This document shows positions 2,098 to 52,300 of a stretch of 64,000 nucleotides of DNA, piece after piece. This stretch comes from Cenococcum geophilum (taxonomy: Eukaryota). Location: contig CP158635.1 in the NCBI GenBank assembly GCA_050273025.1, positions 16,740,001 to 16,804,000 of the forward strand. The letters run 5' to 3'. Numbering within the stretch: the stretch's first letter is position 1; every line of letters begins with the position of its first letter. The notes beneath the pieces are model-generated. The model saw only the letters and a list, made by a program, of their open reading frames with translations. It was not told the origin of the DNA and ran no database searches. A program made the position numbers and the translations under genes.

Positions 2098-3264
2098 CTC
2101 TAAAGTATAATAGGCGGATATAAGCCAACGGCTATAGTACTACTTAAGAAGGAAGCTAATATTCCCCCCCTATAACTATTTATTAAAGCCGCTATAATAT
2201 AAAGGGCGTAAAAAGAACGTAACTCTAATATTATAAAGTATATTAAAATACGCCTAAATAAACTATAGAGGGATTTTAGGGCGCCTTATAAGAGAATAAA
2301 CTAATAACCCTAAAGTAGGGAAGATATATTAGAGAAATAGGTAAAGAAAGTAAAAGAAAAATAGTACTGCTTTAGGGCCTAGGCCTATATAGAAGAGAAA
2401 GAAAGACGTATAAGAGGCTAGTAAAGACAATAGTAAGAGAAAAAAAGGAGCTAAAGTAGAGTATAAAAGAAAGTCGGGAAGCTATTTATCGCAATATAAT
2501 ACTAGCTAGACTAATGCTAGAGAGGTATATAGGAGTTAAAGGTATAGAGGCTAACTAAGGCAAAAGGAACCTAAGCTGTAGTATAGTTAACGCTATAGGG
2601 GGTAAATACTTTAGGGCTCTAAAAAGGCCTAATGAAGGTAGAAAATATAATAGTAACACTCTTAAGAATGGGAATAATAGGACTAAAAGACTAGCTCTAC
2701 TAGGTAGGTGTCCTAGTAGGTAGCCTAAGATATAAATATAGCTAGCTAAGACAGATACTAAAATATATAATACTGTTATGCCCCTTATATACTAACTAAG
2801 AAGTAATACTTTTAGTAGCTAGCACAAAGAACTATAAGACACTACTCTTAATATAAAAAGGCCTTAAGGCGGTTACCTAGTGGCTTATTAGCTAAAATAT
2901 ACTAAACTGGTTCTAGGTTATAAAGGAAATAATAATAAAGGGCGGGGGGGCGAGTAACGGGCGCCCTCTAATAACTCTATAGTAGTAGAGTAAAGTATAC
3001 AATACTAGCGCGTCCGTAGGCTTACTACGGCAGCAGTGGTTCCTAAGGAGGTTAAGAAGTAAGGTAGTAAAAGTACTATAGGTAACTCGCAGGCGCCTTA
3101 TAGGCGCCTTATAGGCGAGTTTTAAAAGGCAAAGAGATAGATTACGGGGTTTTCTTAAGTTAAGTCTTTTTTAAGTTGAGTTTTCTCCTTATATATAAAT
3201 AAGGAGTAGTTTGCGTAGGCCCAATAGGGATCCGAATTAGACGTTAAGCAATGAATTATTATTA
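2098..3264 (+). mobile_element. 3' part of a Tad1-like LINE (ORF2 C-terminus and 3' UTR), interrupted by family-A copy 0
   Basis: Reads L*SIIGGYKPTAIVLLKKEANIPPL (post-RT motif), LLRMGIIGLKD*L and RYKYS*LRQILKYIILLCP (de-RIPed CxCG..QTxxH....C zinc knuckle). Ends in an (ATT)3 tail at ~3255-3264. Confidence 0.85.
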
Positions 3265-45355: not shown

Positions 45356-46897
45356 ATAGGTATAGGGAGAGAAATAAAGAGAACTATTTAAAAAAAGTTA
45401 AAGAGTTATTTACCTAGGAGCCAGTTCTAAAGATCTATTAACTAGGTCTAGAGACGGTTATAAAGATAGATATATTAAACTATATACTAGGGGCGTGCTT
45501 TATATAGAAATATTAAAATAGATGGCACCTAGTAGCATACTATAGTTAAAAGATAATACTACTAGAGTTAAACTATAACATCTATAATAAGGAGTTATTA
45601 GGTATAGTTACAGCACTAAAGAAATAGAGAGTATTCTTATAAGGTATAGAGAAACTATTTATAGTTAAAATAGATTATAAGAACCTAATAGGATTCCTAA
45701 TAATAAAGGAACTTAACTAAAAACAGGTTAAATGGGCGGAAATACTTATAAAATACTATTTTAAGATTTAGTATACTAAGGGTATAGATAATATAAGGGT
45801 AGACGCTCTAAGTTAAAAAGCTAAACTATAAAATAATAAAAAGCTATTAGGGGCTTTACTACAAAAAGATATAGACGGATTAATTAGGTATAATTATCCG
45901 AAAATTATAGTAACTTAAGAGGAATTAAATAAGATTTATAAGTTACTAAAAAGCTTTTAGGCGTAAAGGATTTTAGAAGTATAACTAGAAAATCTATAAA
46001 CGGATATATATAAAAATTGAGAAGTAATATATATTCTAAGAAGTATAGCAAAGCAATTTATAGAAGATTTCTATAAGGGATTAACTTAAGGATATAATAG
46101 AGCCATAGGCTTAGTGTTAAGACTCTAGGAGGAGTATATTATTAACGGAATCTAGGGCTTAGCGCGAAAAGTTATAAAAGAATGTTTAGATTGCTAAAGG
46201 AATAAACTAATAAGGTATAAGCTATATAGAGGGCTATAACCTATTAAAATACTAGAGAGGCTATAGGAGGTTATATTATAGGACTTTATTATTAAGTTAC
46301 TAAAGTTAAGAGATCCTATTACCAGATAAGATTATAACGCGATCTTAGTAATAGTAGATAAGCTTATAAAATAGGAATACTTTATAGCATATATAGAAGA
46401 AATATTAGCAGAAGATATCGCTAGAATCTATATTAAAGAAGTGTTTATAAAATATAGAGTACTAAGTAAAATTATATTAGATAGAGATCTAAGATTTATA
46501 GCAGTATTCTAGGAGGTATTCTTAGCGGAGTAAGGAGTTAGGGCAGTAACTTTTACCGTATATTATCCGCAAATAGACGGTTAAATAGAAAGACTAAATT
46601 AGATACTAGAACAGTATTTAAAACATTATATTAATTATATACAGAATAATTAGGTATCGCTATTACTAGTTATATAGTTTATATATAATGCAATACCTTA
46701 AAAAGGAATAGGTATATTACTATTTAAGGCGAATTACGGATATAAGCTAAGAATATTATTATTACTACAATAAGCGAAGAAGATAAGTAGCATAGCTAAA
46801 GAAAGAATAAAGATGTTAATAAATCTTTATATAGACCTTATAGAATTAATAAAGAAAGTATAAGAGAGAATAAAAAAGTACTATAATATTAAGAGAT

Positions 46898-46983
46898 GCC
46901 CGCGAAGCCCTACTGCACGCGTCCACGTCGCCGCGGGTGGAAACATTATCTGGAATCCTATTCCTCTTGATGGCCAAGTGTAG
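46898..46983 (+). ncRNA. HDV-like self-cleaving ribozyme (predicted)
   Basis: P1 GCCCGCG/CGCGGGT with a G1.U wobble; P2 CTGCAC/GTGTAG; P3 GCG/CGC with L3 TCCACGT; P1.1 CC/GG; P4 CATTA..GGAAT-cct-ATTCC..TGATG; J4/2 GCCAA. G1 is the first base after the TSD. Confidence 0.88.
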
Positions 46984-49360
46984 AGGCGATGGTAGAGAGC
47001 CGTCGCAGCGCGTGCAGCGCTGTTGTTCGACTCTGTGGTGATGAGCCCGCAACGCGTGCAAAGTATCGCCCTTAATAATACTAGGAGCCTTACTACCTCC
47101 GCTTAAAGCTCCTATTCTACCATCTAGGGAGGCCCATTAAGGGAAACTGGGATACGAAAACCGCCCGATATACGACTACCTGGCTCGCAGCTAGGCCCGA
47201 AACTGGCCTTATCCAGCTAGTTAACGTGGACGCGTCCTAGGCGTATAACAGGACACCCTTGGGCTTACACTAGCTCTGAGATTGTAAAGTGTGCGTGATG
47301 AGGGCGTAGGGATCCTCTTTTTATAAGAACTTGTTAAGGTTAACGCGTCGCAGATACTTCGTACAAAACTTGTTAAGGCCCTAAGCCACCACAAAGAACT
47401 TGTTAAGGCCCTACCTAGAGAACTCGTTAAGGCCCCTCTACGAGGGTCTATCTAGTATCTGGTTACACCTAGGTAACTTAGAAGAGGGTCTTAATAGGCG
47501 TGGTGCGCGCGACCTGGTACAGCGACAGCGACGCGACGGCGACGTAATGGTAACGCGACGGCGACCAGACGGCTTAACGAGGTGGAAATATAGGTAAAGC
47601 TCTAGGCAGCGGAAACATAGGCCAGCTTCGACGGCCCTATGGCGTACGACTTAGTTAACTCATAGTTGACTTATAGTTGACTCGCAGGCGACTTATAGGA
47701 GGGTCTTAATAGGCGTGGTGCACGCAACCTAATGCGTATATATATAAGGCGACTTATAGGAGGGTCTTAATAGGCGTGGTGTACGCGACCTGATGTATAT
47801 ATATGGGGGAGGCTATAGGGGAAACACAGGCCAGTCGGATGAGGACTTGATAGTTAGAGACACAGGCATAGCTTATAAAAAGAGGGGACACAAGCTTGGT
47901 TAGTAGGAGGGGGGGGAGTAGGTCGCCTAGTGCGGGACCTGGCGTCTCTACAGCCCCCCTCCTATAAGACACGGTCGGCCTATTATAAGGAGACTCCTAT
48001 AGGCAACGCGAAACGGGAACTGGTAGTAGTATAGGGTGTTGCGCCTCTATACTTCTACTAGCCTCCCGCGGGGCGTAGTGCGTAGTAGCTACTACTAGCT
48101 CTAGGGACCTTACCCCTTAGCTAGGCTCTAACCCCTAGTGCACCTAGTAGATAGGTAGGATTATACCCTAGCCGGAGAGACTACTATATAGCTCGAGAGA
48201 ATGGATGCGCGTATTAGTATATTAATAGACGGAACCGTTCGCCTCTAGGGCGGTATGCTAGTGAGATACGCTTAAGGAGTAAATAGGAGTTACTTAGGCA
48301 GGGGAGGCTTTTTTGGTCTAGGCCTTAACTATAGAAGGTACCTAAGGCTTCTATATTATAGGATATAGCTATAACACCTTTATAGGATTACGCCAATAGG
48401 CACGTAAGACGGGAGTTGCGACCCCTGGAAAAGGCAGCTTATGCCTATACCGGCGGAAATAATAAAAAAGGTGTAAAACTAGAGGCTATAGAAGGCTTCT
48501 AAGCTATGCAAAAGCATACTAACTTTGGGAGGAGACTCTTATATAGACTGCGGGGGGGTAGACTAGTACTTGGGCTAACCTATTATAAGATATCCAAAAG
48601 AACTGGTGAAACCCCCCGTTAAGGTAGTGGCAGCTAACTGCTTATGGAAAGCCCCTAGGCCTTTAGGCCTAGGTTTGGGATAAATACTAGAAAACTAGGG
48701 TAGAGGCCTAGATAAGTAGGCATGTTAAACTCTACTATATAACCACCTGTTTTAACTACTAAATACTACCTAGCAGCTTGGATTGCGACCTACGGTTTTC
48801 CCTATCTCCTTTTGACGGAGTGGTGACCCTTAGAGAGGGCCTAGCTGGGGCCTAGGCACAAAAGATACCTAAATAACACAATATCCCGCTCGCTTATTAG
48901 TATTACGGTGGTTAGAACGGATAAATCCCCCTTACGCCTTTAATAGCTCTAGAGGGGGGAAGGTAAGGCGTATATGGCAGTGGTCTACATAAGAGATAGT
49001 ATATAGGGGATGGGTAAGATATGGGATATAAAGAGACAATAAGACACAGTAATTGATTAGTAAGGCCTAGCTGGGACGTAGTAAACCCTAGCTTTGACAA
49101 GCTAGAGAAGGAAGCAGTGGTTCCTAAGGAGTTTAAAACATCTAAGGAGGAGGACGTGCAGTAGGCCCGTAGGGCCGCTGCTACGTGTAAACATGGCAAA
49201 TCGGGGTTTTTCATCCTACTGAGGCTGCTTATAGGGTTTTTCCTCCCCCAACTGCAGGGTTTTCTTTATGTAAATTACAAGTTTTCCCCCCTGTGACGGA
49301 GTAGTCTGCGTGGGCTAAGATAGGATCCGTATCAGACGTTAATTAAAGAACTACTACTAC
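46898..49360 (+). mobile_element. Non-LTR retroelement, probably non-autonomous, with 5' ribozyme and (ACT)n tail (2463 bp)
   Basis: 14-bp TSD TAATATTAAGAGAT at 46884-46897 and 49361-49374. ACTACTACTAC tail at 49350-49360. 3' motifs shared with the LINE at 2098-3264. GC-richer than its surroundings. Confidence 0.9.
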
Positions 49361-52300
49361 TAATATTAAGAGATCTAAGGGACTAGATCTTAAGGAGGGA
49401 GATAAAGTGTAGCTACTATATAAAATTTTCAAAAGTTAATAACTAAGTAAGAAATTAAACTATATTAGACTAGAACCTTTTAAAATTAAGTAGAAAATTT
49501 TACTAGTTATATTTAAGTTAAACCTACTAGTTAAAATAAAGATCTACCCTATATAGTACATTGCTATACTAAAGCTAGTATATAGGAATATTAAGCTACT
49601 AGTATATAAAGCAGATATATATAGAGGATAGAAAGAAGATAAATAGTAAGTTTTAAAGATTGTTAGCTATAAGGACATTAATAATAAAATATAGTATAAA
49701 GTTAAGTAAATAGGCTACACTAAGACTACCTAGAAGCTACTAAAGAATTTAAAGAATGCTAGGGGAAAGGTATAGGAGTATCGGAAGAAATTAGGTTAGG
49801 CAGCATTAATAAAAAAGGATCGCTAAAAAATAAGTTACCTAAGGGGGACCTAAGAAGACCAGTTGCCGAGCTATTTAGATCTATTTCCTTCTCTATTAAA
49901 AAGAAATCCGTTTTTTTATTATTAAGTTCCTATAAACCCTATTTTATAAGCTTCTACTCCTTAAAATAAACCTTCTTACGCACTTTCTTAAGACGGATTA
50001 GTTAAGTGGACGCCGCTAAACGAGACTTAAGGGCCCGTTGCTAAGCATTAGCAGCCTCCCGTTTAGCGTCCCGAGAACGGCGTAATTTAGTAAAAGTAAT
50101 AGACAGTTTATTATCTAGCCGTATAGCAGTAGATTAAATATAAGACCCTAAGATAAATTAATTAGGGAACTAGACGACTATTAAAAGTAATAGGTTATAT
50201 ATATTTAGTATTAGAGATAAAGCGAATATTATAGGACGAATAAATATTCGCTTTAGTGCACTTTAAATAAAAGGACGGTTATTACAAAGATAGGTTCGCC
50301 AATATAATATAAACTAACCCCTTTTTTAAATAGTAAGAATATAGAGATAGTATAATCTCACTAAGAGATAATATTGCAGTAATAGTACGAACGCGACAAG
50401 CAGTTAAAGAAGAAGAAATTGCTTTAGGTATAATAAGTAATAATATTAACCAAATTAATTAAACGGACATTATACCTCTAGTAAATAACTTAGAGATATT
50501 AGGAATCTTTAAGGATAAAGATAAAGAGGAAGGAGATAGTATTACGGACGCTTTAAGTACAATATTACGACTACTTAGAGAAGAGTTAGAAGAAGCTAGT
50601 TAGTTAATCTAAGTATGGTCTAAAATAGAGCCGATAGAACTATATAATAAGGAATGGTAACTAAGGTTATATAATATAATCTATATAATCTATATAATCT
50701 ATAAAATCCAGAATAGAGTAGATAGAGTATACGTATATTACGTATAAGAAGGATTTTATAGGAGTACGGTTATATATTTAAGGACCCTTAATCCCTACCT
50801 AGATAGTTCCTTCCTTATAGTAATTCTTAGAATATAATTAGAGTTAATCTATTAGGCAACCACTCCACCAGTTATTATTACGTTGTTAACTTTAATTTAC
50901 ATTACCTACACACCTAGCCTAATAACGAGCCTATTATAGTTCCTACTACAAGGTTCCGTTATATAGGTCCCTTCTAAGTTAAGGAATAAATTAGTAAGCT
51001 AGCCTACCGTCTCTAGCTACCCCTATCTATAGCCTATATATATTTAGTATTTTATATAAACCTACTAGAGCTATGGTATAAACTACTACCGGAAAAGAAC
51101 TTCCGTCTAGGCCTAATTAAATACCTTAAGGTAGTGGGCGAGTAGTATAAGGTTAAAGCTATACTACGCTATAAGTCTGTTAAGAATAAGCTTTAATTTA
51201 AAGTTAAATAGCTAGGCTAGCCTGCTAAGAACTCTATATAGGAACTAAAGGATTACCTTAATTATTATAAAGATATTCTAAAAAAATATTAGGACTAAGG
51301 TCCATAATCTATAAGTTGTAAAAAGCGCTCTAATACTATAGTGTTATTGCGACCTATAAAGAAAGCTCGCGAAAAGAGTAAATAGGTTAAATCGGATATA
51401 GAATAGATAGGCTCCGGAAACTATAGGGATAGGGCTACGGCCTAAGGTAGGACGGGTCCTTAGCCTTTTTATATATATAGCATAGAGTTAATAGGGTATT
51501 TTGCTAGAATTGTATTCTTATTTATTAATCTATACTAGGAATATTGTTTTTAGGGCTTCTAAGCCCTTTTTAAAAGCCTTATGAGGCCTTTCTAAGCACC
51601 TAATTAAGGTCCTCGATTGCTATTATGTATAAGAATGAATCCTAAAAGTCTAAACCACAAATGCCTAATCTAGGAAGCCACTATGCCTTATCCTTAGAAG
51701 TAGGATTAGTATCTATTGGCCCTCTAAGGGATGGCTAATAAGAATGAGAACTAGAACCCTTAGTAGGGGTATAGGTAGGCATGAAAATAGGGGTAGGATA
51801 ATAAGGTATAGCTAGAGCAGAGACTCTTAAATGCTTAACACTAATATTAGGTGTAAACCAATACTAATAAAGCTCTTAGGGAGTAAGCTTATAGTTAATA
51901 AAGACACGCTTAAGCCTAGAATGAATAGAGACGTTAGCTGGCTAGTATAGTCTAGAACTACCGAGACCTTACTATAGTAACTGTTAGTTACCTATTCGCT
52001 AGGTACCTAAAGGGTAACCTACCTAATACCGTATTATATTATGCTTTTTTGAAACTTAACGCGTATGCGTGAACTTCTTCCTATAGTAGACAGTAACCTT
52101 CTTCTTATTACCCCCATTATATACCCTATCCTTAGTATACTAACCTTACTCTTATATTAGGCATTACTAGCTAGCTTACTAGGAATTATAGGCAGTATAG
52201 ATAGCTATAGCATAGTCTTAAATTCGGCTAAGTTGTTTAGTATTTATGCTAGAATAAGAGAGAGCCCGGGCAATATAGTAGTTAAGGACATTAAAGGAAC

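Follow-up and report, generated by a model that had tools for sequence, protein, structure and literature searches.

A sequence with the pairings of an HDV-like ribozyme stands at the left edge of an inserted element in the window (the 64,000-nt stretch of Cenococcum geophilum DNA analysed here), which raises the question of what kind of element it heads and what part it might play in the spread of that element. HDV-like ribozymes at base 1 of non-LTR elements free the element RNA from co-transcripts (PMC3774820; PMC3185411), and in trypanosomes a ribozyme is common to autonomous and non-autonomous elements (PMC3383444).

All five paired regions (P1, P1.1, P2, P3, and P4) can be read from the sequence in the correct order for a nested double pseudoknot (Table 1), and every pairing that the first-pass annotation had assigned to P1, P2, P3 with its L3, P1.1, and P4, together with its J4/2, is present. 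P1, P3, and P4 were also recovered by a plain MFE fold. The 3' strand of P2 begins four positions after the candidate catalytic cytosine, a spacing that fits the rule for the family. The HDV-like class has been described as having five paired regions, a nested double pseudoknot and a cut at the 5' base of P1, with few invariants, namely a catalytic C in J4/2, a G of L3 paired to a U of L3, and an A in J4/2, P4 being variable (PMC3774820). In the window, the reverse wobble of L3 is provided by T46922 and G46927, and the candidate catalytic C of J4/2 with a constrained A after it by C46974, followed by A46976 and A46977, in columns that our search pattern left free. The fold is of the HDV class and comes from a filamentous fungus, as do the 230 variant HDV ribozymes reported from fungi with "widely variable gene associations", for two of which cleavage at the base of P1 was demonstrated (Li and Breaker, 2017, PMC5640933). 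According to the same paper, only 11 canonical HDV ribozymes were previously known in fungi, and the word "retrotransposon" is absent from its main text (PMC5640933). The fungal variants pair C with G at the cut site, carry a loop E within P4, and insert one additional base between P2 and P3 (PMC5640933), whereas the cut site of the window fold is formed by G.U, its P2 and P3 are not separated by an additional base, and its internal loop is plain. Therefore, positions 46898-46986 contain an HDV-like fold of the canonical type.

Table 1. Coordinates, within the window, of the insertion, its two parts and the elements of the ribozyme fold.
Feature	Position	Strand	Remarks
Target-site duplication, left, 14 bp	46884..46897	.	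TAATATTAAGAGAT; exact second copy at 49361-49374
HDV-like ribozyme fold, predicted self-cleaving	46898..46986	+	predicted cut immediately 5' of G46898
P1	46898-46904/46932-46938	+	7 bp; first pair G46898.T46938 is a wobble
J1/2	46905-46912	+	
P2 extension, 3 bp	46909-46911/46984-46986	+	added to the first-pass fold; A46912 bulged, so that the domain reaches 46986
P2	46913-46918/46978-46983	+	includes G46915.T46981
P3	46919-46921/46929-46931	+	GCG/CGC around a 7-nt L3
L3	46922-46928	+	TCCACGT; T46922 and G46927
P1.1	C46923 C46924/G46939 G46940	+	
P4 hairpin	46944-46972	+	plain MFE fold: 5 bp, 3x3 internal loop, 5 bp
J4/2	46973-46977	+	GCCAA
Candidate catalytic cytosine in J4/2	C46974	+	C in 113/113 aligned rows among the matches listed
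5' module, non-coding head, 1854 nt	46898..48751	+	ends ...ATATAACCACCT GTT; family consensus ...AACTACCTGCC
Tandem duplication in module	47686..47804	+	Tandem Repeats Finder: period 61, 2.0 copies, 91% matches
Junction triplet, module/LINE	48749..48751	+	GTT; GCC in most copies
5'-truncated LINE 3' end, type B, non-coding here, 609 nt	48752..49360	+	tail (ACT)3AC at 49350-49360
Target-site duplication, right, 14 bp	49361..49374	.	exact repeat of the left copy; empty-site contigs

A descriptor of the fold was written post hoc, from consensus rules of the class and after the site had been seen (7-bp P1, 3-bp P3, TCCNNGN for L3, GG for P1.1, 5-bp P2, and C-N-R-A for J4/2). When both strands of the window were scanned, it matched one site, the ribozyme fold at 46898, and it gave no match in 300 dinucleotide-shuffled windows and 3000 shuffles of the more G+C-rich element, i.e., in about 53 million bases with both strands counted. 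Across 390,210 bases of metagenome loci there were 83 matches, all within the family of the window element. The MFE z-score of the 86-mer was -0.36, an energy that ignores both pseudoknots. At gathering scores, no Rfam model matched the ribozyme region, and a 301-nt search at E<=10 returned no HDV family. In a 100-nt search with laxer filters, the model of the Faecalibacterium prausnitzii HDV ribozyme (RF02682) matched 46899-46985 over its full length with 28.3 bits (E 0.00051), below its gathering score of 44. In that alignment, P3/L3, P4, and J4/2 fell where they had been placed before, and P1 was shifted one base inward (46899). The likeness to RF02682, which gave the best curated score, runs through P1, P3/L3, P4, and J4/2; however, P4 of the window is much longer (16 inserted bases), and it belongs to a eukaryotic retroelement rather than a bacterial gene. 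Beside RF02682, no HDV-type Rfam family appeared at E<=10 in the 301-nt and 100-nt searches; the likeness to the CPEB3 ribozyme suggested in the first-pass annotation received no support from Rfam, whose CPEB3 model was without a match in both, the F. prausnitzii HDV model being the best Rfam match.

The first-pass annotation had also placed G1 of the ribozyme directly after a 14-bp target-site duplication. Downstream of G46898, the 14-mer TAATATTAAGAGAT recurs exactly once, and the exact pair brackets an insertion of 2463 bp (46898-49360), G46898 adjoining the left copy, as described. Empty sites were found in DNA contigs that join 46897 to letters 3' of 49374 (34 in run X1 and 9 in run X2), and one further contig joint, 46883>49361 with 14 ambiguous letters, is likewise an empty site. 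Since empty sites of the host repeat are seen in DNA contigs, the limits of the insertion are confirmed. Fourteen X1 DNA contigs first match at 46898 and differ in the letters upstream (agreement 0.46); therefore, other copies of the element have the same 5' limit. The host DNA on either side (46500-46897 and 49361-49760) is a repeat of very high copy, with a summed contig word depth in X1 of about 0.7-1.95 million vs. about 0.02-0.23 million for the element. The window holds a single copy of the element, plus a 60-nt likeness of its 3' end at 3203-3264.

Metagenome contigs were scanned with the P3-L3-P3' core followed by TGGAAAC, leaving the P1 strand free, and at least 121 loci were obtained. 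Since the pattern fixed P3, L3, P1.1, and the U of the G.U pair, invariance at those positions is by construction. At least 114 of the at least 121 loci belong to the family of the window element. Among the matches listed, seven do not: L034, L035, and L081 are cut by contig ends, L119 is 5'-truncated, and L050, L054, and L082 have a different 5' part. L050, a GC-rich pattern match with no P1 partner in the 61 nt present, was left unassigned. Boundary statistics were calculated on the family loci with at least 30 nt upstream (n = 113 among the matches listed, including three locus pairs with alike flanks that may each be one place seen twice). Mean pairwise identity in these 113 listed loci rose from 0.328 in the 30 nt preceding G1 to 0.98 in the 30 nt that follow it, and 107 of the loci had G at base +1, the others having A (3), T (2), or C (1). 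The alignment of copies for identical 5' boundaries, suggested in the first-pass annotation, thus revealed unrelated upstream DNA and a common G start, and the predicted cut site is, as had been claimed, the exact 5' boundary of the retro-inserted unit, in the window and in 107/113 matches listed, between unrelated flanks. The head of the window element has been copied over a hundred times, in front of truncated LINE copies, in the source genome and its relatives.

Conservation of the pairs was assessed in an alignment of the window and 112 listed loci (113 rows), which left out L057, where P4 to P2 is lacking, and L107, with 79 nt only. Standard pairs occupied 91.2% of the pair cells in the 113 listed rows, compared with 32-55% when the partners were slid by 1-3 columns. 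The aligned rows are 91% alike, and their differences are mostly RIP-type transitions. The two G.U pairs of P2 and P4 in the window had been predicted to revert to Watson-Crick pairs if RIP were undone; both indeed prove to be C>T changes at TpA, the family majority being C at T46947 (89/113 rows) and at T46981 (109/113) among the matches listed. DNA contigs agree at 46947, where most have C (28 in X1, 10 in X2, and 1 in X17). Within J4/2, the 113 listed rows have C at 46974 in all 113, C in 73 and T in 40 at 46975, A46976 in 112, and A46977 in 113. Two-sided changes numbered 18 cells in the listed rows vs. 11.2 +/- 2.6 in shuffles (a value reached by 3/500) and involved 5 pairs vs. 3.8. Covariation inside the family is weak, and RIP-type transitions can turn G-C into A-U without selection. 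Better evidence than such RIP-possible changes comes from P4 of L108 and L109, which carries an A-U to U-A swap, a change beyond RIP; from L007 and L026, in which the internal loop of P4 is closed to continuous pairing (11 bp in L007); and from the lineage of L035 and L081. This related lineage is 79% identical to the module further in, over about 380 nt, and has CAGCAC/GTGCTG for P2 where the family has CTGCAC/GTGCAG, i.e., a two-sided transversion. Its P4 is different and shorter (AGCCTT-CTCG-AAGGCT). The lineage is represented by two contigs only (L035:1-70 and L081:1-70), both beginning 8-9 nt inside the ribozyme and without the 5' strand of P1, and L035 scored 24.5 bits on RF02682, under the gathering score.

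An unrelated complete HDV fold with the same P3-L3-P1.1 core was found in L054 and L082 (P1 GGTTCCC/GGGAACT, P2 CGCACA/TGTGCG, and a short P4), scoring 31.6 bits on RF02682 in L054 (E 0.021). Directly upstream of this fold (L054:1113-1178, minus strand, and L082) is a G+C-rich hairpin that has a T run, and GAGGAGG and an ATG follow closely, a setting that looks bacterial or phage.

In RNA run X21, no 5'-end pile-up was present at 46898, and 4109 of 4339 aligned reads fitted only partly. Sense depth was zero upstream of the bin of 46898, the reads deriving from other copies, whose flanks cannot align. Depth over the LINE 3' part (48789-49333) was 100-800 fold on one strand, and 2-35 fold over most of the module. 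Since the reads were mostly under 95% alike and only partly aligned, we assign them to related LINE copies. An X17 contig apparently ending at 46898 was rejected as a sign of cleavage, as a branch in the assembly graph would look identical.

Conceivably, the fold could be a chance look-alike or an inactive relic, with an internal promoter starting at G46898 setting the sharp 5' boundary; non-LTR internal promoters starting at base 1 are known (PMC3774820). Such an origin would agree with the lack of a pile-up in X21, whose reads are mostly partial fits, with the weak covariation inside the family, with the MFE z-score of -0.36, and with the scores of every Rfam HDV-type model, all below gathering. 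However, the descriptor found no match in about 53 million shuffled bases while its real match starts at the insertion boundary, and the curated HDV model aligns over its full length (E 5e-4 in the 100-nt search). Moreover, the related lineage retains P2 by a two-sided transversion and substitutes another P4 helix, and the same P3-L3-P1.1 core recurs in the unrelated full HDV fold of L054 at 31.6 bits. In view of the shuffle results, the match to a curated model, and the existence of the related lineage, a chance fold with an internal promoter is very unlikely.

The first-pass annotation took this copy to be full length. Our results do not bear this out: the 2463-bp insertion is a chimera, in which a non-coding module of 1854 nt is followed by only the last 609 nt of a 5'-truncated LINE. 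On its own strand, the insertion has no ORF above 80 aa. Since one of its reading frames has 60 stops, it is taken as non-coding. A coding module was considered and rejected, as ORFs are short in every frame and inconsistent across copies, even in the least RIP-mutated ones. Collinearity with the window extends in 33 listed copies up to element position about 1846-1852, and past ...CTCTACTATATAACTACCT the copies diverge from each other. The junctions were compared in 42 copies (41 listed loci and the window) that have the module-end motif and at least 60 nt beyond it. Among these matches listed, one common module end is followed by 38 junction classes, of which three have two or three members (L007/L017/L074, L001/L030, and L064/L068).

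What lies past the junction differs from copy to copy. The N-terminus of RVT_1 follows it in L018 (Pfam 5.2e-07) and, weakly, in L007; a YIDD stretch was read by eye in L040; RNase_H follows in L053 (1.2e-08), above the Pfam cut-off in L004 and L052 and below it in L046 and L059; and a C-terminal cysteine/histidine motif was read by eye past some junctions. In some copies, the window included, the junction is followed by the LINE 3' end alone. L047 (minus strand) joins the usual module end to a 5'-truncated second module (element positions 537-1746); therefore, module RNA can also be a donor template. In the Pfam scan, which covered stop-free ORF pieces of the other copies, no sampled copy was found in which the module runs into an ORF1 or endonuclease domain. 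In five loci, the chimera as a whole (2258-3010 bp in total) lies between exact repeats of 12-14 bp.

The 3' ends of the chimeras are of two unrelated kinds, A-rich (L004 and L010) vs. (ACT)n or (AAT)n (the window, L021, L030, and window 3203-3264). That of L043 is, by eye, a variant of the (ACT)n/(AAT)n kind with no blastn match. The C-terminal domains of the two LINE families are only 46% identical over 26 aa, and a LINE stretch in L079 matches the LINE part of the window element at 93% identity over 197 nt. At least two donor LINE families stand behind the chimeras. A second type-B LINE 3' end, heavily C>T-mutated, occupies window 3040-3264 and ends ATTATTATTATA vs. ACTACTACTAC in the 2463-bp element.

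The module might be the ordinary 5' UTR of one autonomous LINE, as in R2 or L1Tc, its ribozyme being real and the copies resulting from internal deletions or jumps within one RNA. L028, which joins the module near an apparent LINE 5' end, would suit this origin. However, 42 copies among the matches listed share one left breakpoint and fall into 38 right-hand classes, two LINE families with unrelated 3' ends carry the module, the module of L047 is followed by a second, 5'-truncated module, and no sampled copy goes from the module into ORF1 or an endonuclease domain. Given that the left breakpoint is single, that there are two donor families, and that one copy has module joined to module, a 5' UTR of this kind is in our judgement unlikely.

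The module itself had no match to a known RNA family in Rfam, ARAGORN detected no tRNA-like fold at its 3' end in 8 loci, and a stand-alone module gene was not found among the sampled copies. By eye, the last 60 nt of the module (viewed in window 48650-48751, L015, L040, and L057) offer two alternative terminal pairings, GGGTAG with CTACCT and GCAGG with CCTGC.

The letters at the junction bear on how the two parts were joined. After ...ACCT, the triplet in the 42 copies of the matches listed is GCC in 16, ACC in 8, AAC in 5, GCT in 3, and others in 10. For 36 of the 42, the donor site can be read in another copy that runs through uninterrupted. Among these matches listed, donor sites are NCC in 16/36 and N[CT][CT] in 27/36, the respective background frequencies being 0.057 and 0.209. 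At its first letter, the donor mostly has T or C, in contrast to the G or A of the chimera, and therefore the junction G belongs to the module. The CC of the junction may stem from the 3' end of the module, which would create a microhomology of 2 nt, or from the donor, as the final letters copied ahead of the switch. L052 and L059 record independent switches 3 nt apart, at successive TCC triplets of one RNase H-coding stretch.

The explanation that we favour, and hold to be reasonably probable, is that a canonical HDV-like ribozyme heads a ~1.85-kb non-coding module and that chimeras are built by template switches of LINEs. The ribozyme, as the first 89 nt of the module RNA, would cut 5' of G46898 in any module transcript, read-through transcripts included, and cleavage would leave an RNA 5' end that is fixed and independent of the promoter. 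A LINE reverse transcriptase, copying its own RNA at a nicked target, would quit that template at a variable point, often after CC, and resume on the 3' end of the module RNA (...AACTACCTG[CC]), running off at G1. The product would be a full-length module joined to a 5'-truncated LINE within a 12-14 bp target-site duplication, and the window insertion would be one such product. What the sequences show directly is the fold, the exact 5' boundary common to the copies, the fixed module end with its many continuations, and the target-site duplications; cutting by the ribozyme, the switch between templates, and the origin of the module RNA are inferred steps. The uniform 5' end of the hybrid elements is thus probably produced by the ribozyme.

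An active ribozyme could also serve ready-made chimeras that are retrotransposed in trans via their LINE 3' ends, like SINEs with a ribozyme head, in which case switching would be rare. Each chimera has a LINE 3' end and would have a promoter-independent 5' processing signal, and the three junction classes with two or three members are what such a mode of spread might leave. However, with 38 classes in 42 sampled copies (matches listed), most are without a common parent chimera, which makes trans-mobilization of this kind highly improbable as the main route. If template switching is instead the rule, the module might be a new kind of LINE parasite, a ribozyme-capped non-coding RNA without a 3' LINE tail of its own that spreads almost only by template-switch capture of reverse transcriptases in mid-copy. 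We offer this tentatively. In such a parasite, the ribozyme would make each new chimera, wherever it landed, a source of correctly ended head RNA.

Both halves of this scheme are already known separately, i.e., HDV-like ribozymes on retrotransposon 5' ends and chimeras formed by template switching. With the HDV-like ribozymes of non-LTR elements, as described in the available text, the window fold shares the nested double pseudoknot at base 1 and a cut site that is the 5' boundary of the element, a likeness of fold. Unlike them, it heads a 1.85-kb non-coding module and not the LINE itself, and this module is grafted at one fixed junction onto truncated copies of at least two LINE families. The build of the element resembles that of MINE from Magnaporthe grisea, in which a full-length 1.1-kb non-coding RNA, WEIRD, is joined to the LINE MGL truncated at 28 sites (PMC2104539). 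MINE copies are flanked by repeats of 10-20 bp and show a GCC motif at the donor site, a stand-alone WEIRD gene was not found, and template switching by the LINE reverse transcriptase was invoked to account for the chimeras (PMC2104539). Compared by its build as described in the available text, the window element is like MINE in having a full-length non-coding RNA on the 5' side, a variably 5'-truncated LINE on the 3' side and flanking repeats, and also in its many chimerisation sites, its C-rich donor motif, and a head for which no stand-alone gene was found. Thus, as in MINE, the head has fixed ends (G1 in 107/113 and a common 3' end in 42 copies, among the matches listed) and no consistent ORF, and the LINE is truncated at many points within flanking duplications (12-14 bp repeats in the window and five loci). 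However, WEIRD is 1.1 kb in length and of unknown function, and the available text makes no mention of a ribozyme (PMC2104539). The donor motifs also differ, since MINE leaves GCC behind (PMC2104539), whereas the window's family carries CC into the chimera.

A report linking a ribozyme to template-switch chimeras was not found in the open-access PubMed Central and bioRxiv literature. A ribozyme head would explain both the uniform 5' end of a promoterless non-coding RNA and its availability as a switch acceptor, and it makes WEIRD/MINE, where the head RNA was described without a known function or source gene, a system for testing the idea directly. Should the module indeed be a parasite of LINEs, the same mode of action may apply to the WEIRD head of Magnaporthe and to further "orphan" heads of chimeric retrogenes. 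For genome annotation, the true boundaries of a high-copy repeat family are now fixed. The copies also provide over a hundred natural RIP-mutated variants of one ribozyme, as material for structure-function work. In addition, L057 (2980-3100) carries a natural deletion in which P4 through the 3' strand of P2 is gone and TGGAAAC is followed directly by AGAGGCGATGG; from its sequence, this ribozyme should be inactive.
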